Positions 848 through 61,450 of a stretch of DNA of 62,143 nt are shown in pieces. Positions within the stretch are counted from its first letter, which is position 1, and each line of letters starts with the position of its first letter. Both the position numbers and the translations under genes were made by a program. Under the pieces are notes generated by a model. It worked only from the letters and a program-made list of their open reading frames with translations. It was not told the DNA's origin and did no database searches. Source of the stretch: Gemmatimonadaceae bacterium. Lineage in GTDB: Bacteria; Gemmatimonadota; Gemmatimonadetes; Gemmatimonadales; Gemmatimonadaceae. The stretch lies in the NCBI GenBank assembly GCA_025927495.1, contig JAICLH010000001.1, positions 1 to 62,143 of the forward strand, read 5' to 3'.

Positions 848-1671
848 TTGGCCGCCGCCAGAATGGTGGCGTGCACGGTGGTTAGTTGGGCCGCAGTGTG
901 CTGCAACATGAAGCAAGGAACGGACTCGACCAAATCGCGCAGCATGCCGAGATGCGAGCGTGCGTGATCGTCCGTCACCAGCAGGAACGTCGACTGACGG
1001 ACGAGCATCGCGAGCGCCGCCGTTGGCGACAGCGCGGAAAGGACATCTCGCTCGCCACGCTGCAATACCACTACGCCGGCAACCATCGCACGCCTCATGA
1101 ACGTCGCGTCCACGGCGACCCGATGGCGAGCGTCCTGCCAATTGACGAGCGACTCGCGCTGACTCAACTCTGGAAACCATGCCGCGAGCTCGATGCTCAC
1201 GCGCAGCGGCTCGTGCCACCCGTGTGCGATCGGGCCGGGCGAGGTGCGCTCGAGCACGACGCCGTCGTCGCCTAACACGGGCCAGCCGCGACGCGCCAAC
1301 GCGTACGTGAGTGTGGATTTGCCGCAGCCGCTCTCTCCGGTCAGCAGCCAGGCGCCCCCGTCCGGTGCCACGACGCCCGCTGCGTGTACGTGATATCGCG
1401 CATGCTCGCGCAGCTTGAGCATGGCGCCCACGCGAGCCAGCAACTGGCGAGTTGGGCGCGGCGCCGCGGCGTATCCAGGACCGCGAATCAATCTGCCGTG
1501 CGTGAGTCGCAGCTCGGCGCGAAACTCGGCGTCGACGAGCCGCGAGTTCGATCCCACTGTGACGCCATCCACTGGCCCGCACCGCCAATGCGTCTCGCCT
1601 TCGGAACCGGATGCACGAACGGGGGCGCCAGTACTCCGTGCGCCCCCGTCTGGTGATTCCGTTGCTGCCAT
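844..1671 (-). CDS. HPr kinase-related serine kinase (HprK-related kinase A/B type)
   Basis: P-loop LLTGESGCGKSTLTYALARRGWPVLGDDGVVLE resembles the HprK C-terminal domain (G.SG.GKS ... DD). The start is taken at ATG 1671 (MAATESPDGG...) and is uncertain. The track ORF extends to 1887. Confidence 0.7.
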   Translation of the reverse strand: MAATESPDGGARSTGAPVRASGSEGETHWRCGPVDGVTVGSNSRLVDAEFRAELRLTHGRLIRGPGYAAAPRPTRQLLARVGAMLKLREHARYHVHAAGVVAPDGGAWLLTGESGCGKSTLTYALARRGWPVLGDDGVVLERTSPGPIAHGWHEPLRVSIELAAWFPELSQRESLVNWQDARHRVAVDATFMRRAMVAGVVVLQRGERDVLSALSPTAALAMLVRQSTFLLVTDDHARSHLGMLRDLVESVPCFMLQHTAAQLTTVHATILAAAK

Positions 1672-1691
1672 CGATTCTGAGCTCGTGAAGA

Positions 1692-1943
1692 TCAATGCTG
1701 CGGCGGACCCGAGGAGCTTGGCTGAACGGACGGGCTCTGCGCGGGTGAAAGGCTTGGATTCACGTTGCCGCAACCGGCCGGAGTGCAGGAAATTCCTGGC
1801 TGGAGCAGCACCGCCCCCATTACTCCAAGGACATTCTGCGTGAGTACAGTCATCGATGCGTGCGAGGTGAGCGACGGTGCGACCCACGCGCGTCTGCCAA
1901 CTCGGTCCGTCTCAGGCGTTGCTGGCGTAGGCGATGTCGTCAT
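1692..1943 (-). CDS. Candidate small Ser/Pro-rich peptide (possible precursor peptide); coding status unproven
   Basis: Part of track ORF 1692..1991, ending 20 nt upstream of the kinase ATG. It contains WVAPSLTSHASMTVLTQ followed by a hydrophobic stretch, two Cys and a Ser/Pro-rich tail (NPSLSPAQSPSVQPSSSGPPQH). Possible starts are 1991, 1943, 1853 and 1820. None has a convincing Shine-Dalgarno sequence. Confidence 0.3.
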   Translation of the reverse strand: MTTSPTPATPETDRVGRRAWVAPSLTSHASMTVLTQNVLGVMGAVLLQPGISCTPAGCGNVNPSLSPAQSPSVQPSSSGPPQH

Positions 1944-1992
1944 CGATTCGTTGGGCGAAGGAGCCGGCAGTCGAGGAAAAGCCTCGATCATC

Positions 1993-2033
1993 CAAAAAGT
2001 CCACCGGGCGCACTATGTAGTATCGCCCGGTGG
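1993..2033 (-). terminator. Rho-independent terminator after the 2065..3402 lipoprotein gene
   Basis: On the minus strand there is a perfect 10-bp GC-rich stem, CCACCGGGCG (2033..2024) with CGCCCGGTGG (2010..2001), and a 13-nt loop. It is followed by ACTTTTTGG (T-run 1997..1993). Confidence 0.7.
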
Positions 2034-2064: not shown

Positions 2065-3402
2065 TTACGGTTGTGACACCCCGATTCCGTATGTAAGGAC
2101 GCTCCACGCCGAGTTATGGTCTCCAGAGATGCTCCCGTCCCCGAAGAACTCGGCAGGTCCAGTCGTAAACGTCACAACCGAGTCCTGCGCGACCGTCGGC
2201 AGCTGACTGTAGGGCAACCTAAGGCGCCGAGCGCCGTCCACTTCGAGCGTTACGCTATCCGTGCCAAACTTCCGCAGCCGATAAGTGTGCAGACTCGTCG
2301 CGGTCACGTTCGTGCTGTCGACGAAGTTCGCCTGCGGCAGGCCATGCCCCAAGAGGTTCTTCGCGAGGAACGCAATTTTCACGAAGCCAATCCGGCTACT
2401 CGTCAAACCCACTGCCGCCATTCGCGTCCCGTCCACGAATCCAAATACGGTCTCTGGCTTGTTCCCACCGTTGCCGACCTTCACGTGCGCCTCGAAGTAT
2501 GCAGCTGTTCCCGCCGCCAACGAGTCGCGCCGGTATCCGTAGTAATCCTTGTTGTTGGCCAAGATCAGGGAATCAACACCCGCATTCTTTGACCAACTTT
2601 CGGTGGCACTTCCCGAAAGAGACATGTGTCCCGTGCGCCAGATCGGCTTCGCGTGCTGATCGGGAGCAGAGTCCGTCGGCGCATTGTAGAACACATTCCA
2701 GTTCGTCTGCGCTGGCGCCGGCCAGTCTGCGCCGACGATCAAGAAGAACGTGAAGTTCGTCACCTGCTTGGGCGACGTGAATTGGATGGTGCGACGTGCG
2801 CTGACGGTATCCGCTCCCGCCACAGGCTGCTTCGCGGCCAAGCGCTCGCGCCAGTACAGGTATCGCTGGTTAGGCGCGGTGAACGTGCCCGTACCGTCGT
2901 ACCCGACAATCGACATCGCACAACCGCCCGGGCAATTGGTCGACGTCTGCGTCACCGTTGGGCCGTTGATTATGCCCAAGAAAATGCCGGTCGTGTCGCT
3001 CGGCGTCGCGCCGGATTGGTTGCTGCCAATCGGGTACGGCAAGAGATTGCGCACCCCGAACTTCATGGTCCACGTCTTGGTGTTGCCCTGGGTCGCGACC
3101 GTGGCGGCCGCCGCGTACACCCGCACGTTCACGTTTTGTGTGCCGTATATCGAGCCGTCGATACCAGGCGCGAAGTTGCCTGACGTTCCGTCCAACGGCG
3201 TCATAGTGACGTTGCCGTCACCATCTACTGTAGCCATGACCACACCGAGACCTTGCGACGGCAACACCGTCGGGGGCTGCGGCGTGACCCCTGTGCCGGT
3301 AATGGATGCCGAACGATCACTACAACCAACAACAGCCACGAGCGCAGCGACTACGCCCGCAGCGCGAATTGCCGATGAGTGAAAACCAAGGCGCCGAGAC
3401 AT
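2065..3402 (-). CDS. Secreted lipoprotein, unknown function, with a C-terminal concanavalin/LamG-like region
   Basis: An internal ATG at 3402 gives MSRRLGFHSSAIRAAGVVAALVAVVGCSD (signal peptide plus lipobox). The C-terminal 170 aa (FEAHVKVGNGG...HTYRLRKFGTDSVTLEVDGARRL) looks like a LamG/lectin-type beta-sandwich. The family call is from pattern only. Confidence 0.6.
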   Translation of the reverse strand: MSRRLGFHSSAIRAAGVVAALVAVVGCSDRSASITGTGVTPQPPTVLPSQGLGVVMATVDGDGNVTMTPLDGTSGNFAPGIDGSIYGTQNVNVRVYAAAATVATQGNTKTWTMKFGVRNLLPYPIGSNQSGATPSDTTGIFLGIINGPTVTQTSTNCPGGCAMSIVGYDGTGTFTAPNQRYLYWRERLAAKQPVAGADTVSARRTIQFTSPKQVTNFTFFLIVGADWPAPAQTNWNVFYNAPTDSAPDQHAKPIWRTGHMSLSGSATESWSKNAGVDSLILANNKDYYGYRRDSLAAGTAAYFEAHVKVGNGGNKPETVFGFVDGTRMAAVGLTSSRIGFVKIAFLAKNLLGHGLPQANFVDSTNVTATSLHTYRLRKFGTDSVTLEVDGARRLRLPYSQLPTVAQDSVVTFTTGPAEFFGDGSISGDHNSAWSVLTYGIGVSQP

Positions 3403-3645: not shown

Positions 3646-5037
3646 TCACGCCGAAAGTGCGACCGGCTCGCCGCGATTCCACATTAAAAGCCCTCGAACG
3701 GGACAGCCTCGATCCCGAATCAATCCCGTTAGTGCTTGCAGCGCTCGCACCGACGTGCGCGTCCTCCGGACCACGACCACAGGCGACGCCAGGGTTGCCG
3801 TTAGGCTCAACCCGCCGGCGCTCGACAACGGGGCGCTCAACAGCACACAATCGTACCGCCGGCCGACGTGCTCGAGAACCTGCGTCACATCCGCGGTCAT
3901 CGAATCCATTGCCTGGTGCGCGCCGAAGGCACCGCTCGGCAATACGTCCAATGTTCGATCGCGATCCACGACGACGCTGCGTACCGCCGCTGCCCACTCG
4001 ACTCGTCCGGCGAGCACGTCGACCAGTCCAGGCGTCCCGCGCACGCGCGTGGCCGACGAGAGCGACTGACGCTCGATGTCGGTGTCGATGACCAACACAT
4101 CGCGCACCTGCCGCGCGGCGACGGCGCCGAGGTTCGCCGCCACCACAGCGGTGGTAAGCGCGTCGTCGCCCACGATCGCGAGCAATGGTAGGTTGTCCGA
4201 GCGATTCGCCAGCTGCGCGAACAGGAGCCGGTACGCCTCCGAATCCAACTCGACTAACGGAGGCATCTCCTGATCGGAACGACGGCGTCGCACCGGCATA
4301 GCCGGCGCCTCACCGACAGACGCCAACACCCGAACCCCGGCGATCGACTCGGCTTCGTCTTCATCGGACACCCGCGGATCGCGCACCTCGAGCGCGAGCG
4401 CGACGGCAAACCCGACCACAACGCCGAGCGCCCCGGCTCCCGCGAGCATCGCCGGCACCGATGCGCCAATCGAGTCAGCCGATTTCGCGCGCGACTCGTT
4501 CGCATCCATGTCCCGATCCACCGCGCGCGCCTGCAGCAGCCACCGGTGCGCGGACGCGCGCGCCGCGATGGCCGAGTCGTGCGTCCGCTCCAGGGCCATA
4601 GTGTCGGCCACACTCGATGACTGAGCACTCGACTGCCGCGCCCTGAGCAGCACCGAGTCGGTCAGCTGCAGCACCGACCCCGCCATCCTGATGTGACGCT
4701 GAATCGAGATCGTATCCGGTCGCGTTCGCGCAGGGCGCAATGTGGCTCGCACCGCGCGCCGCTCTTGCAACGGCGCGACCACCGTGGCGACCAACACCGC
4801 TATGAACGCGGTCAAGCCGATGGCGCTCACAAGGAGTGGCCGCCGATACACGTTGCGCGCCCGGCGTCGAATCCAGCCCGGTGCATGGGCGGTCGATGCG
4901 GGCAACGTCGGTGCCTTTGGCGAGTCTTCGGCGTCGGCTGGCGGCAACGCCATCATCCTCTTGTCAATCGCTTCGGCCACGTCTTCCGATTCGGACATCG
5001 CTTCCTGTTCACGCATCGACCTGTGATGGACGCCCAC
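3646..5037 (-). CDS. Polysaccharide chain-length determinant / BY-kinase-like protein with degenerate ATPase motifs
   Basis: A TM segment (LLVSAIGLTAFIAVLVATVV), a coiled periplasmic region and a second TM are followed by a MinD/CpsD-like domain (VLVIDTDIERQSL, DVLPSG, YDCVLLSAPL). The Walker A position reads VGDDALTT instead of G.GK(S/T). The start could be a downstream ATG. Confidence 0.65.
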   Translation of the reverse strand: MGVHHRSMREQEAMSESEDVAEAIDKRMMALPPADAEDSPKAPTLPASTAHAPGWIRRRARNVYRRPLLVSAIGLTAFIAVLVATVVAPLQERRAVRATLRPARTRPDTISIQRHIRMAGSVLQLTDSVLLRARQSSAQSSSVADTMALERTHDSAIAARASAHRWLLQARAVDRDMDANESRAKSADSIGASVPAMLAGAGALGVVVGFAVALALEVRDPRVSDEDEAESIAGVRVLASVGEAPAMPVRRRRSDQEMPPLVELDSEAYRLLFAQLANRSDNLPLLAIVGDDALTTAVVAANLGAVAARQVRDVLVIDTDIERQSLSSATRVRGTPGLVDVLAGRVEWAAAVRSVVVDRDRTLDVLPSGAFGAHQAMDSMTADVTQVLEHVGRRYDCVLLSAPLSSAGGLSLTATLASPVVVVRRTRTSVRALQALTGLIRDRGCPVRGLLMWNRGEPVALSA

Positions 5038-5061: not shown

Positions 5062-7536
5062 CTAGGGTTGGCCGAAAGGGTCGCCAGGCGGCGCCTCCAT
5101 GGCCCTGGTCGGTGCGGGAAGCTCACGACGATCGATCCATCGGCCGAAGTCGGCTGCGATCGCCATCCAATGCGCGCGCTCGCCAAACGAGCTCGAGGTA
5201 CGCGCATGGCGGGCGGCAGTTGTCCGAAGATTCGAGATCTCGAGCTCCGCGATTGCACGGACTTGCTGTCCCGCGCTGGTATCGGATGCCAGTGTGAGGA
5301 GCCTGTCGGCGACCGCGCGCTGCGTCACGCGCCGCAGCGAGGCCAGTTTGGGTGATGTTGGGGTGCGAGCATTCCACGTCGCCGCAACGAGTGAGTCGAT
5401 CACTTCCTCGAGGCTGATCGGGTTGCGCTCCTCCGTCGCGAATCGAACCACGCGGGCCGCGCGCTCGCGCTCGAGGATGGCGTTGACGATCATTTGGGCT
5501 AGCGTTCTTGCGGCGCCAAACTGGTCGAACGCCGGACGGGTACGACTGCCGAACAATTCGGGAGACGAGTCGTACGAGAACGGTCGCGGACCCATCAAAC
5601 TCAATACGGTGTCGGGAATCGCCAGCTCCGCCGGTGCGAGCGCGCCTAACAACTGATGCAACGCGGCCCGTTGCTCCGCCGCCGGCAAGGGTCGCGTTTC
5701 TTGCTGGCCATCCCCGCTCACCGCGTTGGCGTATTCCATACCGCCGATCGTCTTGGCTAACGAGTTGAGCGCGAAGCGGTGCAGGAAGTAGACAGGCACG
5801 AACCGCTCTTGCACGAGCGCCACCGGTTCGCCCGCGCGAATGTTGCGCAATCCGAACCTCGCGATCGCGCTGCGACGCACGGCCATCTGATCGCGCAGGA
5901 AACCGGAGGCCGACGCTTGGTCATCCCACAAATTGGTCCGGGGATCCGATGCGAAGTCCGGACGCGCATCGGCGTCGGACAAAAACAGATATCCTTTGCG
6001 GAGGCCATCGGCTACGATCGCGTGCAGCGAGTCGGTTTCGCTCGCGCGCGGGAAGATGCCGTATCCCCAGTGGATGGCCCACACGTCGTACGCGCCCGGG
6101 CCGGACGCATATGCTTGACTGATGTCGATGCTTCCATCGGACGCGAGACGCACGCGTGGCGGCGGATAGTCCATCACCGATCCGCGGTCGTAGGTCGATG
6201 CGATGTAGTTGTGCGCCAGGCCTAACGTATGACCGACTTCGTGCGCAGCTTTCTGTCGCACGCGAGCCAGAACGAACGCGGTGTCTGCCGCGGACGATGC
6301 GGCGCCCATGAGACCCGCGTACAGATTGTAGTCCGTGCGCTCCCGATGCGAATCGAGACGTGCCATGCCCTTGATGATCTCGCCGGTTCGGGGATCGCCC
6401 AGCGATCCTCCAATGGACCAGCCGCGCTCGTTGCGATTCTCCCACTGAACAACGTTGTACCGCGCGTCCATGGGATCGACGCCTTCGGGAAGATCTTCGA
6501 CGCGGAACGCGCCCTTGAGCCCCGCCTCATCGAACGCCGTGACCCACCAGCTCACCCCTTGTTTGACCGCGGTGCGAATTGGTTCTGGAATGCCGCGATC
6601 GACGTAGTACACGATCGGATTCTTGATCGCGCTCGTCGGATCGTCTGGCCTAACGCGCTCCAGCCGGTGGCGCCCGATCCAGCGCTGCTCGAGCGAGCCT
6701 TGAATCGGTTGCCCGTAGTCCTTGAACGTCACACCGAAGTAGCCGACACGAGGATCGAGCGCACGCGGCTCATACGCACTGTCGGGCAGCGGCAGGAAGG
6801 ACAGATGCTGACGCAACGTGATTGCCGCTGGATCAGGCATGATCTCCGCGACGATGTCACCGGGCTTGCCGCCGGCGAGCGCGAACGTCAACGACGCGTC
6901 GATCTCCGTGTTCTCCGGAAAGGCCTTCGTGTACGGCGCGAAGATGGTGGAGCGATCGCGCGACAGCGCGTACGAGCCTTGCTTGTTCGCGTCCAGCGTC
7001 TCGGCGACGCGCACCCAATCGCGAAAGACCATGTCGCTCGCGTCGACGAGGACGCGGCCGCCGGATTCCTCTTCGACGATCGGTAGCGCCGCGACCGTAC
7101 TTGGCGGAAACGATTCCTGCACGCTGCGCACGTTGTCCTGGTTAGGCGACGAGCTCCGGTAGTTCCAGTTCTCGAGCACCAACAGCATGCGGGTACCGGC
7201 GCGATCGAATCGCGCGACGAAAGCGCCCACATCCGCGCCGCGATCGAGTCCGATCGGATTGGATCCGAGGCCCGTAGCCAGCGAGACGAACAGCAGCGCG
7301 CGCATTGAATCGCGCGGAATCTCGAGCAGCACGCGCTGACGCTTGAGATCGACATCGAGCGGAAGAAAGCCGTTCCAGTGCTGCATGCCGGTCAGCGCAT
7401 TGGAGGTCGCGGATGCGATGGTGTCGTGGGAAGTCGTCGTCCGCGAAACCGGCTGGACCGCGGAGACGTGAGCCTGTCGGCCTGCGCAGGCGATGGCAGA
7501 CAAGCACACAGCAATGCCGGCGAGGGTTCGCTTCAT
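5062..7536 (-). CDS. Secreted zinc-dependent metalloprotease (DUF5117/DUF5118-type)
   Basis: Contains the HEVGHTLGLAHN zincin motif and is about 820 aa. ATG 7536 gives MKRTLAGIAVCLSAIACAG (signal peptide/lipobox). Confidence 0.85.
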   Translation of the reverse strand: MKRTLAGIAVCLSAIACAGRQAHVSAVQPVSRTTTSHDTIASATSNALTGMQHWNGFLPLDVDLKRQRVLLEIPRDSMRALLFVSLATGLGSNPIGLDRGADVGAFVARFDRAGTRMLLVLENWNYRSSSPNQDNVRSVQESFPPSTVAALPIVEEESGGRVLVDASDMVFRDWVRVAETLDANKQGSYALSRDRSTIFAPYTKAFPENTEIDASLTFALAGGKPGDIVAEIMPDPAAITLRQHLSFLPLPDSAYEPRALDPRVGYFGVTFKDYGQPIQGSLEQRWIGRHRLERVRPDDPTSAIKNPIVYYVDRGIPEPIRTAVKQGVSWWVTAFDEAGLKGAFRVEDLPEGVDPMDARYNVVQWENRNERGWSIGGSLGDPRTGEIIKGMARLDSHRERTDYNLYAGLMGAASSAADTAFVLARVRQKAAHEVGHTLGLAHNYIASTYDRGSVMDYPPPRVRLASDGSIDISQAYASGPGAYDVWAIHWGYGIFPRASETDSLHAIVADGLRKGYLFLSDADARPDFASDPRTNLWDDQASASGFLRDQMAVRRSAIARFGLRNIRAGEPVALVQERFVPVYFLHRFALNSLAKTIGGMEYANAVSGDGQQETRPLPAAEQRAALHQLLGALAPAELAIPDTVLSLMGPRPFSYDSSPELFGSRTRPAFDQFGAARTLAQMIVNAILERERAARVVRFATEERNPISLEEVIDSLVAATWNARTPTSPKLASLRRVTQRAVADRLLTLASDTSAGQQVRAIAELEISNLRTTAARHARTSSSFGERAHWMAIAADFGRWIDRRELPAPTRAMEAPPGDPFGQP

Positions 7537-7672
7537 GCGCAAGGGAACGAAAGGAGAGGGTAGGGCCGACGTGCGTAATGCGGCGCGAAACTGAGACGGG
7601 AGAAAGTAACGGGGGCGAGAGTGACTAGCACCCTCGCCCCCGTGTTGCCGTACTCTCAAACTGAACGGCGCC

Positions 7673-8209
7673 TTACTGCACCGTGACCGATCCCTTCATG
7701 CCCAGCGCAAGGTGGGGCATGCAGTGGAAGGGATAGGTTCCTTTCGGGACCTTCGCGAAGGAAATGGTTTCGCTCTCACCGGCATTCATGAGGAAATTGC
7801 TCTGCAGCGGAGCCATCTGGTTCGGCATGTTCGCCGTCAGTTGGGCCGTCGCTCCGGCAGGAATCGTCGTCGAGTCGAAGGCGACATCGTGTGGGCCGCC
7901 CGACTCCATTGTGAACTTGATACCGTCGCCTTGCTTGATTGTGAGCGTGGCGGGTTCAAACCGATAACCTTTCGCATCACCCACCATCTTCACGTCCCAC
8001 GTCTTACCGGTGATCGGCGCGGCGGTTGCCGACGTTGCCGCCGCTCCGCCTGCGGCGGGAGCGGCGGCTGGTGCCGCGGCGCTCTCACTCGCTGCCGGCG
8101 CGCTAGCCGCCGTGGTATCCGAGGTCGACGCCGCGTTCTTCGAGCCGCCGCCACACGCGCCAAGGGCGAATGCGCCGGCGATCAGCGCCACCTGTCCGAT
8201 GAACCGCAT
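7673..8209 (-). CDS. Cupredoxin (plastocyanin/pseudoazurin-like blue copper lipoprotein)
   Basis: ATG 8209 gives MRFIGQVALIAGAFALGACGG. An Ala-rich linker precedes the C-terminal copper ligand pattern GTYPFHCMPHLALGMKGSVTV (H...C..H....M). Confidence 0.85.
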   Translation of the reverse strand: MRFIGQVALIAGAFALGACGGGSKNAASTSDTTAASAPAASESAAAPAAAPAAGGAAATSATAAPITGKTWDVKMVGDAKGYRFEPATLTIKQGDGIKFTMESGGPHDVAFDSTTIPAGATAQLTANMPNQMAPLQSNFLMNAGESETISFAKVPKGTYPFHCMPHLALGMKGSVTVQ

Positions 8210-8449
8210 TTCTTTAGGCCTCCAGTGCCGAGCTGTTGCAAAAGTTGCTGGGATTGCTTCCGGTCGCACACGCGAAGCATTGTGAACTTATTCACATGGA
8301 TCACCAAAGGCAAACCACGCGCGGTGCTCGCGCATCGGGCGTGCCATGTAGCGTGACCCATGTAGCCTGACATAGAACCAGCAGACCCCTACGACAAGCG
8401 GGAGCGTCGCAACGCGGCGCTCCCGCCTCTAAGGCACCATATTTTTCGC

Positions 8450-9097
8450 CTACTGCACGTGCACGACGCCGGTCATGCCGGGGTGAATCGAGCAATGGTA
8501 GCTGAACGTGCCCGCCGTCGTGAATGTCCGACTGATCTTGGTGTTCGAGTACGGCGATGCGACGGTACCGAGATCCGCAGGCGTTCCCGGAGGCGCCGGC
8601 TGATTGAACGTGACCGTGTGGGCGAGCGATTGGAACACCCAGGTCACCGTTCCGCCCGCTTTGATCGTGACGTCGGCCGGAGTGAACTGCTGTCCCGTTG
8701 TCGCTGTAACTGTGTCTGCCGTCCGGAAGTCCGCTACGCTCACGGTTCCAGAGCCGTTCTTGGTGACGCCACCCGACGTGAGCGACGCTGAGATCGTCAC
8801 GGGTCCGCCAAGCGCAACCGACGTGACCAGGCCGCTCCCATTGACCGTCGCGATCGATTCGTCGCTCGACGACCAGGTCGCTGCGCCCAACCCTGACATC
8901 GGGTGCCCGTTCTGATCGAGTGGCGTTGCAGACATCTGCGTCTGCGTGCCGGGCGCGCCGAAGATGGTTTGCGTGTCCGGCTGGACCTGGAGGCTGGTGA
9001 AGACCGCAGGTGGTGGCGGGGTTACAGTGCTGCCGCCGCCTCCGCCGCAACCGACAACTACGAGCGAGGCGAGAATGATGACCATTGAAGCGCGCAT
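8450..9097 (-). CDS. Big_2 (bacterial Ig-like) domain fused to a cupredoxin domain; lipoprotein
   Basis: ATG 9097 gives MRASMVIILASLVVVGCGGG. The Big_2-like segment is ATPLDQNGHPMSGLGAATWSSSDESIATVNGSGLVTSVALGGPVTISA. The C-terminal copper site is GTFSYHCSIHPGMTGVVHV. Confidence 0.8.
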   Translation of the reverse strand: MRASMVIILASLVVVGCGGGGGSTVTPPPPAVFTSLQVQPDTQTIFGAPGTQTQMSATPLDQNGHPMSGLGAATWSSSDESIATVNGSGLVTSVALGGPVTISASLTSGGVTKNGSGTVSVADFRTADTVTATTGQQFTPADVTIKAGGTVTWVFQSLAHTVTFNQPAPPGTPADLGTVASPYSNTKISRTFTTAGTFSYHCSIHPGMTGVVHVQ

Positions 9098-9213
9098 AAA
9101 TCCCCCGGGGCCGGCGAGTGAAGAAAGAAACGGACACTCCGTTCGACGATTCAACGTTGAACAAACTTCAGAGCCAACACGTCAGCAGCTCCGGCGCACT
9201 CATCACGTCGCTC

Positions 9214-10785
9214 TTACTTCGAATTCGTTAGCAGAAGGCCCATTGCGTGGCTGTCACCGCGCTCCATTGCGACTTCGGCCGCAAGGCTTACATGGTCGCG
9301 AAAAATGGTCGCCACGGCTAGCGTCTTGTCTTTGCTGCGAAAGGCGACGGCACAATCTCGGTTCTCGATCGATCCCTGGATCTCGGTGCCATCCCAGCTC
9401 GACACATAGCCGACGTAGTCGATCGTGACGTCGTAGTGGGCGCTCCAGAAAAACGGAATCGACCGGAAAGGTTCCCGCGCGCCGAGTAGGTTCCGCGCCG
9501 CCGCCTGACCCTGTCGCTCGGCCACAACCCAGTGCTCGACACGGATGCGCTCGCCGGTCCACGCATACGGGAACCGCGCGATGTCCCCGGCCGCGAAAAC
9601 GCCCGGGGCGTTAGTCTCGAGTGTGTCGTTCACGGAGAGCCCGCGGTCCATTGCCAGGCCCGCCGCTTCGGCGAGCGCGACGTTAGGCCGAACGCCGATA
9701 CCGGCCACGATCAGCTCGCCGGATAGCGAGCGTCCGTCGTCCAACACGACGCCGTCCGCGCTCACCGATGCGACGGTGTGCTTGAGGTGGAACACGACGC
9801 CGTGCTCCTCGTGCAGGGCTTTGATGAACTGGCCCAACTCCGGACCGAGCACCTTCTCGAGCGGTAAGGCCTCAGGCGCAACCACGTGCACGTCAAGCCC
9901 CCGCGCGCGCAGCGAGGCGGCTACTTCGAGTCCGATGAAACTCGCGCCAATCACGATCGCGCGCTTCGCTCCCGCCGCCGACGCAATGATCGCCCTGCTG
10001 TCCCCGAGCGAACGCAGATAGTGCACACGCGGTGAATCGGAACCCGGTACGCGGAGTTGGACCGGGCTCGCACCCGTTGCGAGCAATACGCGGTCAAACC
10101 GGTGCTCGGCACCGCCCTCGAGCATCACGCGCTTGTGCTTCGGGTCGAACGACGCGACGCGTCCGCGCACGATGTCGATTCCGTTCGCTTCGTCGAATCC
10201 GGGCGGCCGCAGGGGAATCCATTCCTCCGGCGCGTTGCCGGCCAGGAAATCCTTGGAGAGATTCGGGCGGTCGTACGGCGAATCGCCATCTGCGTCGATT
10301 ACCGTAATGGTTCCGTCGTATCCCTCGCGCCGCAGCATCTCGGCGCCGGCGTTGCCCGCGGCGCCGCCGCCGATGATCCCGATGCTGCCAGGCTGTTGCC
10401 CGCTGCGGGGAGATCGGTTCGGAGTCGGCGCCAACGGCTCACGCTCGATCTTTCCCGTTACGCGTGCCTTGCCAGCGCGCACCTCGACCCGCCAACACGC
10501 GACGGGGTTGAGCGCCGGCGCCCGCAACGCCTCGCCCGTGCGCAGATCAAAGCACGCGTGGTGCCACGGACAATGCACGTGGTCGCCCTCGAGCAATCCT
10601 TCCGCCAGTGGCCCGCTGTAGTGCGAGCACACGGCGCCCATCGCCAGCACCTCCTCGCCGCGGCGCACCATCAGCACCGCTTCGCCGTTGGCATGACCGA
10701 GCAGCATCACGCCATCGGCAAGAGCGGTGAGAGGGATGCCTAACGTGAGATCGGGTCCAGCTAACTGTTGCTGCTCGCTGCTCAT
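9214..10785 (-). CDS. Rieske [2Fe-2S] domain fused to an FAD/NAD(P)-dependent pyridine nucleotide-disulfide oxidoreductase (ferredoxin reductase/AIF-like)
   Basis: Rieske ligands CSHYSGPL...CPWHHACF, dinucleotide motifs IGIIGGGAAG and AIVIGASFIGLEVA, and the C-terminal reductase domain are present. Start taken at ATG 10785 (MSSEQQQ). Confidence 0.85.
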   Translation of the reverse strand: MSSEQQQLAGPDLTLGIPLTALADGVMLLGHANGEAVLMVRRGEEVLAMGAVCSHYSGPLAEGLLEGDHVHCPWHHACFDLRTGEALRAPALNPVACWRVEVRAGKARVTGKIEREPLAPTPNRSPRSGQQPGSIGIIGGGAAGNAGAEMLRREGYDGTITVIDADGDSPYDRPNLSKDFLAGNAPEEWIPLRPPGFDEANGIDIVRGRVASFDPKHKRVMLEGGAEHRFDRVLLATGASPVQLRVPGSDSPRVHYLRSLGDSRAIIASAAGAKRAIVIGASFIGLEVAASLRARGLDVHVVAPEALPLEKVLGPELGQFIKALHEEHGVVFHLKHTVASVSADGVVLDDGRSLSGELIVAGIGVRPNVALAEAAGLAMDRGLSVNDTLETNAPGVFAAGDIARFPYAWTGERIRVEHWVVAERQGQAAARNLLGAREPFRSIPFFWSAHYDVTIDYVGYVSSWDGTEIQGSIENRDCAVAFRSKDKTLAVATIFRDHVSLAAEVAMERGDSHAMGLLLTNSK

Positions 10786-13150: not shown

Positions 13151-13157
13151 GTTAGGC
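13151..13157 (+). repeat. Intergenic copy of the over-represented heptamer GTTAGGC (hisA-hisI spacer)
   Basis: Read directly; see the window-wide heptamer finding. Confidence 0.9.
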
Positions 13158-34078: not shown

Positions 34079-34103
34079 GTCGAGGCAATCGACCGCCCGT
34101 CGC

Positions 34104-48900: not shown

Positions 48901-49112
48901 GCCGGGATACGACTCGGAAGGGGACGCGAAGCTAGATTCGTCGTGTGGAAAAGTCAATCCGATGAAAATCGACAGTGGAGTGAAGGCAGTTCGGGCGATT
49001 CGCGACGTGAGGCGACGCGAGGCGACGCAAACGCGGCGTTGACCCGTGCCCGAGCGCTGGATAGCTTTCATGGTCTGTATGCCGCGAACGGAACACGCAT
49101 TGGAGTAAGGAC

Positions 49113-51603: not shown

Positions 51604-53007
51604 ATGCGGGGTGTGAGCGCGATACTGCCCGGCGCGGAGGACACGATCGCGGCGATGGCGACGCCGCCCGGGCGGAGCGCGCTCGCGGTGGTGCGCATGA
51701 GCGGACCGCGCGCGCACGAGATCGCAAGCCGGCTGCTCGACCCATGGCGCAACGCGCCGGGCGCGTCGTACCGTGCTCGCCTAACGGATCCGGCCACGGG
51801 CCGCGTCATCGAGCGGCCGGTCGTGACGCCGTACCGCGCGCCCCGCTCCTACACCGGCGACGATCTCGTCGAATTGAGCGTGCACGGCGGCCACGTCGGC
51901 CCGGCCCGTGCGTTAGGCGCCCTCCTCGGCGCCGGCGCGCGCCTGGCGCTGCCCGGCGAGTTCACGCGCCGCGCCGTGGCCGCGGGGAAGCTCGACGTGC
52001 TGCAGGCGGAGGCGATCGGCGATCTGATCGACGCCGAGTCGCAGGCGATGCACGATGCGGCGCTGGCGCAACTGGACGGGCGGTTGTCGCGACGCGTGGC
52101 GGAGCTGCGCGAAGCGGTGCTCCAGGTGGAAGCGATGATCGCGTACGATATCGACTTTCCCGAAGAGGACAGCGGACCAATCGACCCGGCGCGGGTCACG
52201 GAGGCCACGACCGCACTCGTGGAGTCGCTGGATCGACTCCTGGGGACGGCGGCGGCCGGTGAAGTGGTGCGGCGCGGCGCGCGCGTGGTCCTGGCGGGCG
52301 CGCCGAACGTCGGCAAGTCATCGCTGTTCAACGCGCTCGTAGGACACGAGCGGGCGATCGTGACGGCAATCGCGGGGACGACACGCGATGCGATCGAGGC
52401 GGTGGTCGATCTGGGCGCGTGGCCGGTGCGCCTGATGGACACGGCGGGCTTACGGGAGTCGGCGGACCCGATCGAACAGTTGGGCGTGGCGATGACGGCG
52501 CGGGCCCTTGCTGCGGCGGACGTCGTGCTGGCGTGCGGCGACAGCGCGCTGTCGTTAGGCGAAGCGGTCGCGGCGGCGGCCGCGCGGACCGCGGCGCCGG
52601 TGGTGCCGGTGCGCACGAAGGGCGATCTGACGCCGACCAGCGGCGATTTAGTAACAAAGAGCTCTGAATCGAGCGCCGAGCGGCCGATCGTCGTCAGCGC
52701 GCTCACCGGGGCCGGGCTCGCCGAGCTGCGCGCCCGACTCGAGGAGATGGTGGAGGGGAAAGCGGGGGACCAATGGCGCGACACGCCGCTCCTCACGCGC
52801 GAACGGCATCGCGCCGCCATCGCGCTCGCCCGCGCCGAGGTCGCGGCGTTCCAGGACGCGTGGTCAGATGGCGATGACGCCGTACCCGTCGTCATTGCCG
52901 CCGTGCAACTGCGCGCGGCCGCGACGGCGCTCGAATCGCTCATTGGCGCGATCGATGTAGAAGATGTCCTGGACCGCGTCTTCCGAACGTTCTGCGTGGG
53001 CAAGTAA
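51604..53007 (+). CDS. mnmE: tRNA modification GTPase MnmE (TrmE)
   Basis: TIAAMATPPGRSALAVVRMSG, G-domain GAPNVGKSSLFNAL / DTAGLR / TKGD, and the C-terminal FCVGK motif. Confidence 0.9.
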   Translation: MRGVSAILPGAEDTIAAMATPPGRSALAVVRMSGPRAHEIASRLLDPWRNAPGASYRARLTDPATGRVIERPVVTPYRAPRSYTGDDLVELSVHGGHVGPARALGALLGAGARLALPGEFTRRAVAAGKLDVLQAEAIGDLIDAESQAMHDAALAQLDGRLSRRVAELREAVLQVEAMIAYDIDFPEEDSGPIDPARVTEATTALVESLDRLLGTAAAGEVVRRGARVVLAGAPNVGKSSLFNALVGHERAIVTAIAGTTRDAIEAVVDLGAWPVRLMDTAGLRESADPIEQLGVAMTARALAAADVVLACGDSALSLGEAVAAAAARTAAPVVPVRTKGDLTPTSGDLVTKSSESSAERPIVVSALTGAGLAELRARLEEMVEGKAGDQWRDTPLLTRERHRAAIALARAEVAAFQDAWSDGDDAVPVVIAAVQLRAAATALESLIGAIDVEDVLDRVFRTFCVGK

Positions 53008-57334: not shown

Positions 57335-57341
57335 GTTAGGC
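57335..57341 (+). repeat. Intergenic copy of GTTAGGC (long non-coding region upstream of the PQQ dehydrogenase)
   Basis: Read directly. Confidence 0.9.
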
Positions 57342-57739: not shown

Positions 57740-59470
57740 ATGCGAATCCCCAGGTTGCTCATTGGCGTCGCCGGTTTGGCGCTGTGCGTCGGCAGCGCTG
57801 CCGCGCAGGAGAAGGTCGAGACGGCGAAGGCCAAGGCTGATACGGCGCCGAGTTTCACGAGCGTGACCGACCAGATGTTGCTCGACGCGCGGCGGAGCGG
57901 GAGCAACTGGGTGACTTACGGACGTGACTATTGGAATCAGCGCTGGTCGCCGCTGACGCAGATCAACACGTCGAACGTGGGCACGCTGCACATGGCGTGG
58001 ATGTACCAGACGGGCATTTCGCGGTTAGGCTCATTCGAAACGAGCCCGATCGTCATCGACGGCGTGATGTATCTCACGACGCCGTATAACACGGCGATGG
58101 CGGTGAATGCGCGGACGGGGAAGGAGATCTGGCGCTACGAGCACAAGCAGAGCATTGCGTCGCCGATTTACTGCTGCGGACCGAACAATCGCGGCGTGGC
58201 GATCTCCGGCGGCACGGTGTACATGGCGACGCTCGACGCGCATCTGGTCGCGCTCGACGCGAAGACGGGCGCGGTGCAGTGGGACGTGCAGGTGGAGGAT
58301 CCCGAAGCCGGGTACAGCGAGACGATGGCGCCCCTCATCGTCGGCGACAAAGTGATCGTGGGCGTCTCCGGCGGCGAATACGGGATTCGGGGATTCATCC
58401 GCGCGTACAACAAGTCGAACGGTCAGCCCTTGTGGACGGCGTACACGGTTTTCGACAAGGGGTGGGAAGGCAAATTCGCGGCAGCGACAAACGAGGGCGA
58501 CGACCTGCATCGGAACATCGATGCGGAGAAATCGGCGATGGCGCAGTATGGTGATGCGTGGCAGCGCGGCGGCGGCGGCGTTTGGATGACGCCGACGTAC
58601 GATCCGGCATCGCATCTCCTGTTCTTCGCTGTGGGGAATCCATCACCCGACCTCGATGGGTCGGTGCGGCCGGGCGACAATCTGTGCACGGATTGTATCA
58701 TGGCGGTGGACGCCAACGACGGTACGGTGAAGTGGTACTATCAGGAAGTGCCGCACGACGTGTGGGATCTGGACGCGGTGAGTCCGCCAGTGCTGGTGAA
58801 GCTCAAGGACGGGACGACGGCGGTCGCGCAGGCGGGCAAGACGGCCTGGGTGTACGTGTTGAACGCGTCGACCGGCAAGCTGATCCGGAAGTCGGCTCCG
58901 TTCAACCGGCTCGAAAACATGTTCGCGCAGCCCACAGCCGAGGGGACCCGGATGCTTCCGGGGGCGAACGGCGGTTCGGAGTGGTCGACGACGGCCGTGA
59001 ATCCGACGTTAGGCTATATGTATGTTTTAGGCATCGAGCAGCCGATGCATTACATCACACACAGCGCGCCGTTCGAGAAGGGGAAACTCTGGTTGGGATC
59101 GGCGTTCAAGGCGGTGCCCGGCGAGCGGCAGTACGGGACGTTCAGCGCGGTGAACCTGAACACGGGGAAGATCGCGTGGCAGGTGGAGACGGAGCAGCCG
59201 ATGATCGGCGGGGCGATGACGACCGCGGGGAATCTCGTGTTCGTCGGCGAGGGGAACGGGCACTTCAACGCCTTCGACGCGCGGACGGGCAAGAAGCTGT
59301 GGATGTTCCAGGGTGGGGCGGGGTGCAACGCGCCGCCGGTGACGTACATGCAAGACGGCAAGCAGTACATCGCGGTGGCGTGCGGCGGAAACTTCCAAAT
59401 GGGCTTTCCGTTAGGCGATGCGGTCCTGGTGTTCACGCTCCCGGGTACCGCGCCGAAGTCAGCACGGTAA
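57740..59470 (+). CDS. PQQ-dependent alcohol/methanol dehydrogenase family quinoprotein (type I, soluble), with an XoxF/PedH-like lanthanide signature
   Basis: Signal peptide, vicinal Cys-Cys (PIYCCGPNNRGVA; codons 58172..58177), metal ligand Glu in VSGGEYGIRGF, WDLDA (58763..58777) and repeated Trp-docking motifs of the eight-bladed propeller. Confidence 0.9.
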   Translation: MRIPRLLIGVAGLALCVGSAAAQEKVETAKAKADTAPSFTSVTDQMLLDARRSGSNWVTYGRDYWNQRWSPLTQINTSNVGTLHMAWMYQTGISRLGSFETSPIVIDGVMYLTTPYNTAMAVNARTGKEIWRYEHKQSIASPIYCCGPNNRGVAISGGTVYMATLDAHLVALDAKTGAVQWDVQVEDPEAGYSETMAPLIVGDKVIVGVSGGEYGIRGFIRAYNKSNGQPLWTAYTVFDKGWEGKFAAATNEGDDLHRNIDAEKSAMAQYGDAWQRGGGGVWMTPTYDPASHLLFFAVGNPSPDLDGSVRPGDNLCTDCIMAVDANDGTVKWYYQEVPHDVWDLDAVSPPVLVKLKDGTTAVAQAGKTAWVYVLNASTGKLIRKSAPFNRLENMFAQPTAEGTRMLPGANGGSEWSTTAVNPTLGYMYVLGIEQPMHYITHSAPFEKGKLWLGSAFKAVPGERQYGTFSAVNLNTGKIAWQVETEQPMIGGAMTTAGNLVFVGEGNGHFNAFDARTGKKLWMFQGGAGCNAPPVTYMQDGKQYIAVACGGNFQMGFPLGDAVLVFTLPGTAPKSAR

Positions 59471-59555
59471 CGAGGTTCGGCGGGCCGGCGTTGTGCCGCG
59501 ATGGGGTCGCGCGCCGGCTTCGCGTGTATGCGTCAGGCAGCGGAGCAGTGATCTC

Positions 59556-59972
59556 ATGTGGCGATCTGCGGTTGGCCTAACCGGCGGACTGATCTGCGTG
59601 CTGGGGGCATTCGCCGCCGGTCGCGACAGCGGACATGCGGCGATGCAGCCGCGGCATCCGGCGCTCAAGACCGGCGTCGATTGGGTGGCGTACGGCCCGA
59701 AGGAGAAGGAAGCGTACCTGAGTGGATTCATCGCGGGAGCGGGAGCGGAGCAAGCTCGCGCGCTCGCGGCCTTGGCTGGTGACTCGCTCGACAGCAGCGC
59801 GGTCTCGAGCAGCGCGATCGCGCGGCTCACGAACGGGAAGCAGCTTCGTTTCTCGTATGCGCCGTCGGTGTACTCGGCACAGATCGACGATTTCTACTGG
59901 TGGGAGGACCATCGGGACGTACCGATCGTGGACGTGCTCATCACGATCAACCGTCAATTCCGAGATCGGTAG
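59556..59972 (+). CDS. Hypothetical exported/membrane-anchored protein (138 aa)
   Basis: ATG 59556 is preceded by GGAG. MWRSAVGLTGGLICVLGAFAAG is hydrophobic. No family was recognised. It lies between the PQQ dehydrogenase and the porin. Confidence 0.45.
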   Translation: MWRSAVGLTGGLICVLGAFAAGRDSGHAAMQPRHPALKTGVDWVAYGPKEKEAYLSGFIAGAGAEQARALAALAGDSLDSSAVSSSAIARLTNGKQLRFSYAPSVYSAQIDDFYWWEDHRDVPIVDVLITINRQFRDR

Positions 59973-60172
59973 CGATCTGGAGCCAGTGGCGGCGCTGCGA
60001 TCATGTTCAACGCTTAGGGAGGTGGGGCCACAGAGATCGTTCTCTTCGCGCCGCTTTCGCCCGCAGCGGCGGGGCCTTTGGGAAAAAGGTGGGTCGACGA
60101 TTTTCAGCGATTCCGTGGATGCGAGCTCTTCACGGTTTGGTTGACACTCAAACTCGACTGGGAGAAGCAGCT

Positions 60173-61450
60173 ATGAAACGATCCGCACTCTGGTGTATCG
60201 CCTTGATGCTCGCCGGCGTTAGCACGGCCCGAGCGCAAGGTCTCACGATGCAGATGAGTAACGGATGGGCGTTTACGTTCACGGGAAACGTCAATGCGTT
60301 TCTCGTGTACACGAATGGCAATGTGGATTCCGCCCTCGGTCCGATCAACGGCGGTCTCGTGGGTCCCGAACGGGTGACCCGTATTCGTACGGGATTGCTG
60401 CCGGGCTTCGCGAACTTCGAGGCGGCGGGCAAGGAAGGCGATGTGGATCTCAAGGTGCACTTCGGATTCGCGCCCCAGATCAACAGCAACAGCTTGCACG
60501 ACAACTTCGGCGCGCAGATCGACATGCGCGAGGTGTACCTCACGGTGGGTGGCACCTGGGGCACCATCCTCGCCGGCCGCGAGCTGGGGCTGTTCCAGCG
60601 GCAGAACATCCTGACCGACATGACGCTGTTCGGGACGGGAGCCAGCGGCGGTACGTTAGGCGCGGGCGGCACGACGTTAGGCCGCATCGGCTTCGGATAC
60701 GTCTATCCGAACTTCAACGCGCAGATCACGTACAGCACGCCGGCGGGGAAACCGACGCAGTTCTCGATCGGATTGTTCGATCCGAGCGTCGTGTGCGGCC
60801 CGAATCCGTGCGCGGCCGCGGGCGATGCGTCGTTTCAGGGTACGCGGCTGCCTCGCCTGGAGGCAGAGCTGAGCTGGACGGGCAACATGGGCACGGCCAG
60901 CTCGAGTGGCCAGATGACCAGTGCCAACAAGATCATGCTGTGGGTGAACGGCACGTGGCAGAACACGAATCTGTCGGCTGTCTCGACGCCTGATTCGAAC
61001 CCGAGCATCAACTCGGCCGGAGTGGGCGGTGGCGCGAAGATCGATGTGAACGGGTTCTCGATCGTCGGATCCGGCTACTACGGAAGCGGCATCGGAACCA
61101 CCCTGATGTTCGGCCAACTGGACGGCAGTGCGATCGATCCAGCGCTGCAAGCGCGCAAGTCGTGGGGCTATCTGGGCCAGGTGCAGTACACCGCGCCCGG
61201 CACGCACTGGACGATCGGCGGCAGCTGGGGCGAGAGCCACCTCGACGAGAGCGATGGAGACAAGGCGTTCCTCGACGGGGATCCGGATCCTCTCGTGAAG
61301 TACAACCGTGCGGCGGATGTGATGCTGACGTATCAGTGGACGAAGTCGCTCCGCTGGGTTGCCGAGTATACGTGGGCGCGCGCGGCGTCGTACGCGGGGT
61401 CGCAGAACACGTCAAACCAGGGCGCCTCGGGATTCATGCTGTTCTTCTAG
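60173..61450 (+). CDS. Outer-membrane porin (beta-barrel)
   Basis: ATG 60173 gives MKRSALWCIALMLAGVSTARAQG (signal peptide). Alternating amphipathic beta-strand pattern, Gly/aromatic-rich, ending in GFMLFF (C-terminal Phe signature of OMPs). Confidence 0.7.
   Translation: MKRSALWCIALMLAGVSTARAQGLTMQMSNGWAFTFTGNVNAFLVYTNGNVDSALGPINGGLVGPERVTRIRTGLLPGFANFEAAGKEGDVDLKVHFGFAPQINSNSLHDNFGAQIDMREVYLTVGGTWGTILAGRELGLFQRQNILTDMTLFGTGASGGTLGAGGTTLGRIGFGYVYPNFNAQITYSTPAGKPTQFSIGLFDPSVVCGPNPCAAAGDASFQGTRLPRLEAELSWTGNMGTASSSGQMTSANKIMLWVNGTWQNTNLSAVSTPDSNPSINSAGVGGGAKIDVNGFSIVGSGYYGSGIGTTLMFGQLDGSAIDPALQARKSWGYLGQVQYTAPGTHWTIGGSWGESHLDESDGDKAFLDGDPDPLVKYNRAADVMLTYQWTKSLRWVAEYTWARAASYAGSQNTSNQGASGFMLFF
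60655..60682 (+). repeat. Two copies of ACGTTAGGC 21 nt apart inside the porin gene (both read Thr-Leu-Gly)
   Basis: Read directly: GGT ACG TTA GGC GCG GGC GGC ACG ACG TTA GGC CGC. Confidence 0.9.

Follow-up and report, generated by a model that had tools for sequence, protein, structure and literature searches.

GTTAGGC, a hyper-abundant asymmetric DNA word of certain Gemmatimonadaceae with features resembling those of DNA uptake sequences

Introduction

Why should a bacterial chromosome carry one short word about once per kilobase, in either orientation and mostly inside genes of unrelated families? This question is raised by a stretch of 62,143 nt from a Gemmatimonadaceae bacterium (GCA_025927495.1, contig JAICLH010000001.1, positions 1-62,143; hereafter the window). 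A first-pass annotation, made from the sequence alone, had noticed in it the heptamer GTTAGGC (reverse complement GCCTAAC) and had likened it to DNA uptake sequences. Three classes of dispersed hyper-abundant words are known: the uptake sequences, which comprise the DNA uptake sequence (DUS) and the uptake signal sequence (USS), the highly iterated palindromes (HIP), and skewed words such as Chi. To our knowledge, DNA uptake with sequence specificity has been described in two families only, both proteobacterial and animal-associated.

In the literature we found no report of GTTAGGC, or of an uptake-sequence-like element, in Gemmatimonadota; matches to the 7-mer were only to primers. The kind of phenomenon is known, and what is new here is the word, the phylum and a natural contrast of presence and absence among close relatives. 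From the analysis below, we tentatively propose that CGTTAGGCR, with the core GTTAGGC, is a genome-wide DNA-level signal of one Gemmatimonadaceae group that may act like DUS and USS and may have spread by biased transformation and recombination.

Results

An exact search of the window returned 53 copies of the word, 29 on the plus and 24 on the minus strand. This is the number that the first-pass annotation had counted by eye, and its coordinates were all correct except one, 34395, which should read 34394. The window has a G+C content of 64.3%. For the window as a whole, 100 dinucleotide-preserving shuffles gave a mean of 2.5 copies and a maximum of 8, an order-2 Markov model predicted 2.1, and GTTAGGC ranked first of the 7-mers by observed/expected. 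The 46 copies in coding sequences compare with 3.0 ± 1.6 when synonymous codons were shuffled within each gene, a null under which neither the protein nor the codon usage of the gene changes and the TTA codons that come from the word are retained. When codons were resampled from the usage outside the word, 1.4 ± 1.2 coding copies were expected. The enrichment first suspected from base composition is therefore real on the window under Markov and codon-aware nulls alike. With contigs of other samples, which match the window at 98-99.9% identity, another 9 kb of sequence and 11 more copies were gained, so the density is not special to the window. Three other words, GATC, TCGA and CGATCG, occur in genes at 1.3-1.5 times the synonymous-shuffle prediction (z = 5-12), which is far weaker than GTTAGGC.

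The word is read in every frame that a gene can tolerate. With 54 genes called by a codon-usage model, most of them annotated by Pfam families, 46 copies lie in coding sequences, two supply TAG stop codons (32028 and 34102, as first described) and five are intergenic; the earlier figure of 50 of 53 in coding sequences was slightly high and hangs on the choice of start codons. In all, 87% of the copies are in genes and in frame. The frame tally agrees essentially with the earlier one: 27 copies are read as nnG-TTA-GGC and three as GTT-AGG-C, and on the antisense side seven as CCT-AAC and nine as CTA-ACn. The two stop-containing frames are absent inside genes, and one of them is used at the two gene ends. 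Each of the four stop-free frame and orientation classes is enriched 16-52 fold (sense Leu-Gly, 27 observed against 0.52 expected; sense Val-Arg, 3 against 0.13; antisense Leu-Thr, 9 against 0.34; antisense Pro-Asn, 7 against 0.45). The 8.2 kb of non-coding DNA holds seven copies, or 0.85/kb, the same density as in coding DNA. Because all stop-free classes are enriched and the non-coding density equals the coding density, the word acts as DNA and not as a peptide, mRNA or codon.

The flanks of the 53 copies show the bias that had been described earlier, with C at -1 in 37 and G at +8 in 33, and carry no information beyond one base on each side. A repeat-element origin is thereby excluded; remnants of a mobile element or a repeat of the repetitive extragenic palindromic (REP) or miniature inverted-repeat transposable element (MITE) type, normally a foldable conserved unit of tens of bases between genes, were considered and ruled out on these flanks and on the 87% of copies that sit in genes in frame. 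Compared with word-free lineages, the 21 one-off variants of the word include none that is depleted and several with a 2-7 fold enrichment (GTTAGGA, GTTAGGT, TTTAGGC and GTTAGTC). A repair bias at a single position would transfer at most the share of one neighbouring word, which fails against an excess of 20-50 fold; with no neighbour depleted, very-short-patch or other single-position repair bias was ruled out. An artefact is excluded because the same word turned up in assemblies made independently in many studies and in assemblies of raw reads.

These results bear on the view that the word is a by-product of context mutation or very-short-patch repair bias, of Leu(TTA)-Gly decoding, of mobile-element remnants or of the assembly. 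The rare codons TTA and CTA are concentrated in the word, which at first sight suggests a translational signal, but antisense and non-coding copies are enriched as much as sense copies. Taken with the undepleted neighbours, the uninformative flanks and the recurrence across assemblies, this leaves a by-product origin highly improbable, and relatives of the same G+C content that lack the word, described next, also stand against it.

Two sets of loci, designated here by L numbers, were compared. A scan with the MnmG protein, taking one genome per species, gave 80 loci that are labelled nearly all Gemmatimonadaceae, Gemmatimonas or other Gemmatimonadota (one is labelled only 'bacterium'); the second set consisted of 80 polA-centred loci from metagenomes. 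When the two sets were joined by sequence overlap, only clade A could be linked. The organisms that carry the word are known from metagenomes only, and clade A turns up in dozens of public sequencing runs. Carrier genomes include GCA_036376545.1 (DASVAB01), DASVAC01, JBQTIF01 (SAR189) and DASZNJ01; JADGGM01, DASSNR01 and DASVWN01 are the non-carriers closest to them. The word is restricted to certain lineages, as the first-pass annotation had considered it might be: the loci of 60 related species (1.12 Mb) hold 21 copies against 54.5 expected, a density of 0.02/kb and an under-representation, whereas five word-rich loci including the window (129 kb) hold 113 against 5.8. The window and the loci L001, L054 and L081 reach densities of 0.85-1.2/kb; L001, whose MnmG is 90% identical to that of the window, has 1.23/kb and L054, with a G+C content of 0.61, has 1.19/kb. 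The 0.69/kb of L074 comes from only two copies in a 2.9-kb locus. Lower densities were seen in L002 (0.59/kb), L010 (0.50/kb), L041 (0.37/kb), L006 and L024 (0.33/kb each) and several further species loci (0.14-0.3/kb). The polA-centred loci gave the same bimodal picture: clade A, which consists of nine close relatives (L088-L096), has 0.4-1.1/kb, clade D (G+C 0.57-0.63) has 0.2-0.9/kb and L122 (G+C 0.70) has 0.85/kb, while the word is essentially absent from about 55 loci. Since relatives of like G+C lack the word and carriers span 57-70% G+C, composition bias is excluded.

The same extended word, CGTTAGGCR, is shared by clades A and D, by clade B together with L122, by clade C, by L054 and by L024. 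C stands at -1 in 70-94% of the copies in every carrier group and a purine stands at +8 in most groups; no dialect variation was seen among the carrier groups. The PolA tree joins clades A and D as sister groups, and the lineages next to this pair are word-free. In the MnmG tree and an eight-marker tree of species representatives, carriers appear in five or six places among non-carriers, and the nearest relatives of clade A (L003, L057, L004 and L005/L013) are word-free. These are neighbour-joining trees with short deep branches, which do not separate an old trait lost repeatedly from several gains. What can safely be said is that the same word persists among lineages whose proteins diverge by about 30% and whose G+C contents span 13 points, and that it can be missing from close relatives.

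The non-carriers, which make up about 75% of the sampled Gemmatimonadaceae, yielded no alternative dispersed word. Other enriched 7-mers in the relatives were traced to effects of G+C composition, common codon pairs or parS half-sites and were set aside. Among them, CGTGAAA, GTGAAAC and ACGTGAA, for which L005, L006 and L022 had shown a seeming enrichment, correspond to parS half-sites and probably stem from the same origin-proximal region. A candidate second dialect, CAGACGGCAG in L056, was rejected because it belongs to two local clusters of a repeat with a period of about 121 bp and is not a dispersed word. The clusters, at 17-245 and 3702-4039 of L056, contain CAGACGGCAG and GAGACGGCGGACGGCAG; L056 comes from a word-free Gemmatimonadaceae metagenome-assembled genome, and its CAGACGGCAG shares 8 bases with the Neisseria DUS core. 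Within carrier loci there were no word-free islands: no gap was unusual enough and none had a markedly different composition. For DUS and USS, a lower density in prophages, transposons and recently acquired islands is reported, as would be expected of any word that builds up with time in the genome, whether through uptake or a cell-internal process.

Individual copies are maintained within a clade and turn over between clades. In the alignment with L001 (85% nucleotide identity), the word is intact at 13 of 14 sites, compared with 34% for all aligned 7-mers (P = 7e-6), and L001 has five extra sites where the window shows CTG-GGC or one-off variants. Among clade-A contigs at 77-88% nucleotide identity, where ordinary 7-mers are 18-42% intact, 75-100% of the sites are intact (L088, 19/19; L089, 18/19; L091, 16/18; L092, 13/13; L094, 9/12; L096, 6/8). 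In comparisons with clade D and L122, none of the aligned sites is shared (0/5, 0/3 and 0/6) at similar densities. What is kept is therefore the density rather than the individual site, as no aligned site is common between clades of similar density. The comparison of orthologues outlined in the first-pass annotation thus gave shared positions within the clade and different positions between clades.

The word has left a mark on codons and on proteins. The earlier impression that almost every in-frame TTA lies inside the motif holds as a concentration but was too strong as worded: 27 of the 57 TTA codons are inside the word, and 12 of the other 30 are in one-off variants of it. The word takes up 17% of the Leu-Gly and 29% of the Pro-Asn dipeptides. 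Comparison with orthologues indicated that the word has changed the protein at about half of the checked sites. A purely synonymous case is the invariant R-L-T of MnmG, which is written CGC-CTA-ACG in L001, L016, L024 and L054, carriers that are placed apart in the trees, and with CTC or CTG elsewhere. Replacements in carriers include T-V-G to S-L-G in MurB, S-L-A to S-L-G in the ABC-F protein, A-A-G to A-L-G and L-L-V/A to A-L-G. In long open reading frames (ORFs), Pro-Asn reaches 1.46 times its expectation in carriers and 1.06 times in non-carriers, and Val-Gly dipeptides are fewer in carriers. A comparable proteome imprint of USS and DUS was described by Findlay & Redfield (PMC2817400). The suggestion that the DNA word itself, and not the peptide, is selected or driven is strongly supported by its presence in all frames, its density in non-coding DNA, its conservation among relatives and these amino-acid replacements.

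The word has no polarity with respect to replication. Around the minimum of the GC skew (about 28 kb), the copies divide into 26 leading-strand and 27 lagging-strand ones. If the origin is instead set at dnaA, the split becomes 32 to 21, which is not significant and is confounded by a run of co-oriented genes. The lack of strand polarity noted at the outset thus holds for the strands of the window (29 plus, 24 minus) and for those of replication. This makes signals of the Chi type, or of the type of the FtsK orienting polar sequences (KOPS), unlikely. If the word were Chi-like or self-marking, it would modulate a RecBCD/AddAB-type nuclease or a defence system, such that host DNA is spared or repaired and foreign DNA without the word is degraded. 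Chi sites are likewise short, non-palindromic, over-represented, lineage-specific and embedded in genes, and maintenance of the word within the clade would suit such a role. However, Chi sites are co-oriented with replication, and an excess of 20-50 fold at 1/kb is far above that of known Chi sites. Given also the spacing described below, which is unexpected for Chi, we would give this explanation only a slight chance.

Copies avoid each other at short range. Gaps shorter than a quarter of the mean numbered 8 against 23 expected (P ~1e-4) in a pool that counts L001, most of whose sites are common to it and the window; without L001, a recomputation by hand gave 7 of 88 against about 19.5, with P estimated at roughly 5e-4. 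The coefficient of variation of the gaps is only marginally low (0.84 against 0.97, P = 0.056). This depletion of close pairs is in keeping with a second tag adding less when a fragment already has one. The nearest pair in opposite orientation is 133 bp apart.

The genes of the window and its relatives were examined for proteins that follow the word. Two pilin genes, 35444-35830 (-) and 36056-36412 (-), lie in tandem downstream of polA and their products share 45% identity; both products are major pilins of the PilA-like kind, in which only the N-terminal helix common to the class can be recognised, and the organism probably makes a type IV pilus. The first pilin adjoins polA in carriers and non-carriers at similar identity (51-60%), and the second is a duplication confined to clade A, other lineages having one copy or none at this position. 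As the presence of neither follows the word, the pilins were rejected as its receptor, and the link to them that the first-pass annotation had suggested was not supported. Also rejected as a driver was an accessory MutS-like gene, 18161-20029 (+), because it is present in the word-poor L005 and L013 too; among the 80 related loci it was found only in these two and in L001. It encodes 622 aa with MutS domains III and V only, the N-terminal part being alanine-rich and hydrophobic-looking by eye, and it is inserted with an alpha/beta hydrolase gene on one side and the genes that precede mnmG on the other. When ORF families of word-rich loci were compared with those of all loci (about 20 kb around mnmG or polA per genome), no real gene followed the word; the screen yielded only off-frame spurious ORFs and clade-D-specific genes. 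A search of the collected locus DNA for ComEC with its homologue YcaI of E. coli gave no match, and no methyltransferase is encoded among the annotated genes of the window.

The strongest rival to the uptake reading, a class that the first-pass annotation had not named, is a HIP1-like word: the target of an orphan (solitary) methyltransferase or of a nucleoid or chromosome-organising protein, kept by cell-internal selection or by methylation-linked repair with no role in uptake. The cyanobacterial HIP1 has a 15-300 fold excess, is present in coding and non-coding DNA and is conserved between genomes above background (PMC5861425), features that the word of Gemmatimonadaceae shares. HIP words are patchy across their phylum and follow the cognate methyltransferase (PMC4390886), which resembles the clade restriction seen here. 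The one-off deviations from the word concentrate at its ends (positions 1, 6 and 7), as reported for HIP1, the equal coding and non-coding density fits a process that acts on all resident DNA, and the short core keeps a cell-internal function in play. On the other side, HIP words are palindromes that match the sites of Type II-like methyltransferases, and CGTTAGGCG is asymmetric, its reverse complement being CGCCTAACG. The absence of a methyltransferase from the window and of any gene tracking the word in the ORF-family screen of the mnmG and polA surroundings speaks against this rival as well. A repair bias acting on one methylated base cannot lift a 7-mer 20-50 fold while no neighbour word is depleted, and the complete turnover between clades argues against position-specific structural roles. 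A HIP1-like role is thus possible but, in our judgement, somewhat unlikely.

The individual copies were located by the exact search and our gene calls, and the strand given for each is that on which GTTAGGC reads. The copy at 1270-1276 (-) is in sense in the gene 844-1572 (-) and is read GTG-TTA-GGC (V-L-G); those at 2869-2875 (+) and 3800-3806 (+) are antisense in the genes 2065-3267 (-) and 3646-5037 (-), where they are read GCG-CCT-AAC (A-P-N) and AGC-CTA-ACG (S-L-T). A Met-zincin gene, 5062-7542 (-), contains sense Leu-Gly copies at 5644-5650 (-) and 6220-6226 (-), a sense GTT-AGG-C (V-R) at 6648-6654 (-) and an antisense Pro-Asn at 7141-7147 (+); the codons at 6220 place that copy within the zincin H-T-L-G-L-A-H-N motif, as stated earlier. 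The Rieske/FAD oxidoreductase gene 9214-10785 (-) has an antisense Pro-Asn at 9682-9688 (+) and a sense Leu-Gly at 10738-10744 (-). The copy at 13151-13157 (+) is intergenic, between a His_biosynth-family gene that ends at 13121 and the PRA-CH gene 13194-13778 (+), which has a sense Leu-Gly at 13574-13580 (+).

In murB, the sense Leu-Gly at 14237-14243 (+) alters the protein, orthologues having mostly T-V-G. The ABC-F ATPase gene 14796-16721 (-) holds sense Leu-Gly copies at 15564-15570 (-) and 16416-16422 (-), the latter where orthologues have S-L-A (Ala to Gly). The MutS-like gene carries an antisense Pro-Asn at 18175-18181 (-) and a sense Leu-Gly at 19015-19021 (+), a site also present in L001. 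An intergenic copy, 21027-21033 (-), lies upstream of mnmG. Within mnmG, the sense Leu-Gly at 21818-21824 (+) is also found in L001 and L054, the antisense Leu-Thr at 22750-22756 (-) is the conserved R-L-T with the same synonymous solution in the four loci named above, and the sense Leu-Gly at 23144-23150 (+) alters the protein, A-L-P/D/A being found in orthologues. Sense Leu-Gly copies follow at 23690-23696 (+) and 24002-24008 (+) in the SIMPL gene 23445-24158 (+), and at 26919-26925 (+) in an M23 peptidase gene, where L001 has the one-off GGTAGGC. A NIF3 gene has an antisense Leu-Thr at 28961-28967 (-), and an ABC ATPase gene a sense Leu-Gly at 29618-29624 (+) where orthologues have mostly A-A-G.

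The MFS gene 30809-32032 (+) contains antisense Pro-Asn copies at 30817-30823 (-) and 31288-31294 (-) and receives its TAG stop from 32028-32034 (+). A permease gene has a sense Leu-Gly at 32678-32684 (+), with L-L-V/A in orthologues, and an antisense Leu-Thr at 33468-33474 (-) that is also present in L054. The gene 34104-35069 (-) takes its TAG stop from 34102-34108 (-) and holds a sense GTT-AGG-C at 34394-34400 (-) and an antisense Pro-Asn at 34950-34956 (+). The copy in polA, 38090-38096 (-), is a sense GTT-AGG-C, and that at 39991-39997 (+) is intergenic, upstream of a cold-shock gene. Antisense Leu-Thr copies were located in a Ser/Thr kinase gene (40837-40843, -) and an AraC-type regulator gene (43881-43887, +), and a sense Leu-Gly in the HATPase domain of a histidine kinase gene (41400-41406, -). 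The copy at 45271-45277 (-) is just upstream of the called start of the gene 45293-46111 (+) and would be inside the ORF if the start were the GTG at 45164; the same gene has an antisense Leu-Thr at 45612-45618 (-).

Sense Leu-Gly copies were found in dnaA (48685-48691, -), twice in yidC (50354-50360, +; 50843-50849, +) and twice in mnmE (51912-51918, +; 52554-52560, +), which also has an antisense Leu-Thr at 51779-51785 (-). The copy at 57335-57341 (+) is intergenic. A pyrroloquinoline quinone (PQQ) dehydrogenase gene has three sense Leu-Gly copies (58024-58030, 59008-59014 and 59410-59416, all +), the gene 59556-59972 (+) an antisense Leu-Thr at 59575-59581 (-), and a porin gene two sense Leu-Gly copies, 60655-60661 (+) and 60676-60682 (+), which form the closest pair of the window (starts 21 nt apart). 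The presence of copies in dnaA, polA, mnmG, mnmE, yidC, murB and the histidine kinase gene, as first described, agrees with the Pfam annotation and the gene calls.

The window is an origin-proximal chromosomal region whose genes include mnmG, parA, parB, polA, dnaN and dnaA, and the sequence and Pfam families reveal the order rpmH-rnpA-yidD-yidC-mnmE. Two parS sites, 24236-24251 and 24273-24288, lie just upstream of parA (24376); one is a perfect TGTTTCACGTGAAACA and one has two mismatches. The cumulative GC skew is lowest near 27-28 kb, beside parB and a bactofilin gene. The dnaN-dnaA pair (46128-49071) is about 20 kb from this minimum, the gap between dnaA and rpmH is only about 40 bp, and no cluster of DnaA boxes was found. 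The replication origin is probably not beside dnaA. MnmG (21132-23363, +) was called as 743 aa, with the GIDA domain beginning at residue 100 and most relatives aligning only from residue 76-96; either translation truly begins further downstream, or the protein has an N-terminal extension in the clade of the window and a few others. At 7673-10785 (-), two cupredoxin (plastocyanin/azurin-type) genes, one with a Big_2 domain, stand beside the Rieske-FAD/NAD(P) oxidoreductase fusion gene, and these genes possibly form a small electron-transfer module.

Discussion

In this study, a short asymmetric word was found to be written into one group of Gemmatimonadaceae genomes, and its link to DNA uptake and recombination is what we infer from its pattern. 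Under the uptake reading, a surface or periplasmic DNA receptor of the transformation machinery would prefer fragments that bear the word. Such fragments would be taken up and recombined more often than others, and alleles that gain or keep the word would replace alleles without it (molecular drive). Selection for the uptake of conspecific DNA might reinforce such a drive. The word would thereby come to stand about once per kilobase, in either orientation, at any place where the protein can accommodate it.

The hallmarks of uptake sequences that the first-pass annotation had listed are found in the word: a density of about 1/kb, a non-palindromic sequence, no polarity and a location in genes. 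Restriction to certain lineages, mild enrichment of one-off variants and over-dispersed spacing are further hallmarks that it displays, and a prerequisite of the uptake reading, a type IVa-like major pilin gene, is present. We favour the uptake class over HIP because of the asymmetry of the word, the variation at its edges, its imprint on the proteome, its turnover at constant density and its avoidance of close pairs. As context only, recombination is reported to be frequent in soil populations including Gemmatimonadetes, and ComEC loci to be associated with it (PMC7305173).

Several observations weigh against the uptake reading. The distribution is clade-restricted, with close relatives that lack the word, while DUS and USS are family-wide, with dialects (PMC3630211). 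The well-defined core is just 7-8 bp, compared with 9-12 bp in known uptake sequences. No inverted pairs act as terminators, unlike in Neisseria, and the density is the same in coding and non-coding DNA, while for known uptake sequences it is higher in the non-coding part. No ComP-like receptor or minor pilin was found, the neighbouring pilins do not track the word, and comEC, comEA, dprA and pilQ/T were all absent from the locus DNA, which covers about 20 kb per genome. Moreover, every feature established here is also compatible with a word selected for a cell-internal function. A small though appreciable probability goes to an origin linked to neither transformation nor methylation, such as a sequence-directed gene-conversion or repair drive of all 7-8 positions to CGTTAGGCR or a chromosome-wide binding code for a Gemmatimonadaceae protein that depends on spacing and not on position. 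Polarity-dependent signals, peptide or RNA functions and single-position repair bias are excluded by the evidence, the Chi-like role being graded as unlikely.

The resemblance to known systems is partial in each case. The USS of Pasteurellaceae (AAGTGCGGT / ACAAGCGGT) likewise occurs about once per 1.2 kb, is non-palindromic, stands in both orientations and lies mostly inside genes in a few permitted frames, and its one-off variants are also enriched. The peptides that it encodes are more frequent, and its sites are partly at changed residues (PMC2817400). The Gemmatimonadaceae word differs from it in sequence and phylum, in a core of 7-8 bp without AT-rich flanking segments and in being clade-restricted rather than family-wide. 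The frames of USS favour preferred codons, whereas all usable frames of GTTAGGC need rare codons. The DUS of Neisseriaceae (GCCGTCTGAA and its dialects; receptor ComP) has a similar density of about 1/kb, lacks polarity, is lineage-specific and is conserved among relatives, and a type IV pilus system is another shared trait, probable here from the PilA-like pilin genes. DUS, however, is mainly intergenic and often forms inverted-pair terminators, in contrast to the 87% of copies in genes and the 133 bp to the nearest opposite pair in the window; nor were dialects or a ComP-like minor pilin seen here, and the local pilins do not follow the word.

The cyanobacterial HIP1 (GCGATCGC) and the alternative HIPs are also hyper-abundant, HIP1 being an 8-mer written into genes by codon choice; they occur alike in coding and non-coding DNA, and are conserved above background and patchy across the phylum. 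They are palindromes tied to cognate methyltransferases, and the GTTAGGC word is asymmetric. Chi (e.g. GCTGGTGG), KOPS and the architecture imparting sequences (AIMS) are, like it, short asymmetric words that are over-represented and lineage-specific, but they are strongly co-oriented with replication and show an excess of a few fold, as opposed to 20-50 fold without polarity here.

Whatever its function, the word measurably distorts codon usage, about half of the TTA codons being in the word, and protein sequence too. Analyses of codon usage, gene prediction and selection in carrier genomes must therefore account for it. Without a role in uptake, the word would stand as a non-palindromic counterpart of HIP1, the function of which has stayed open for decades, and the natural contrast of presence and absence would help to find the responsible protein. 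Should the word prove to be an uptake signal, a third independent case would be known, from an abundant and largely uncultured soil phylum, and this would mean that self-preferring transformation has evolved more than once and is at work in soil communities. The existence of close relatives with and without the word would then make a hunt for the receptor by comparison possible, and the word may serve as a simple sequence marker for transformable lineages in metagenomes.

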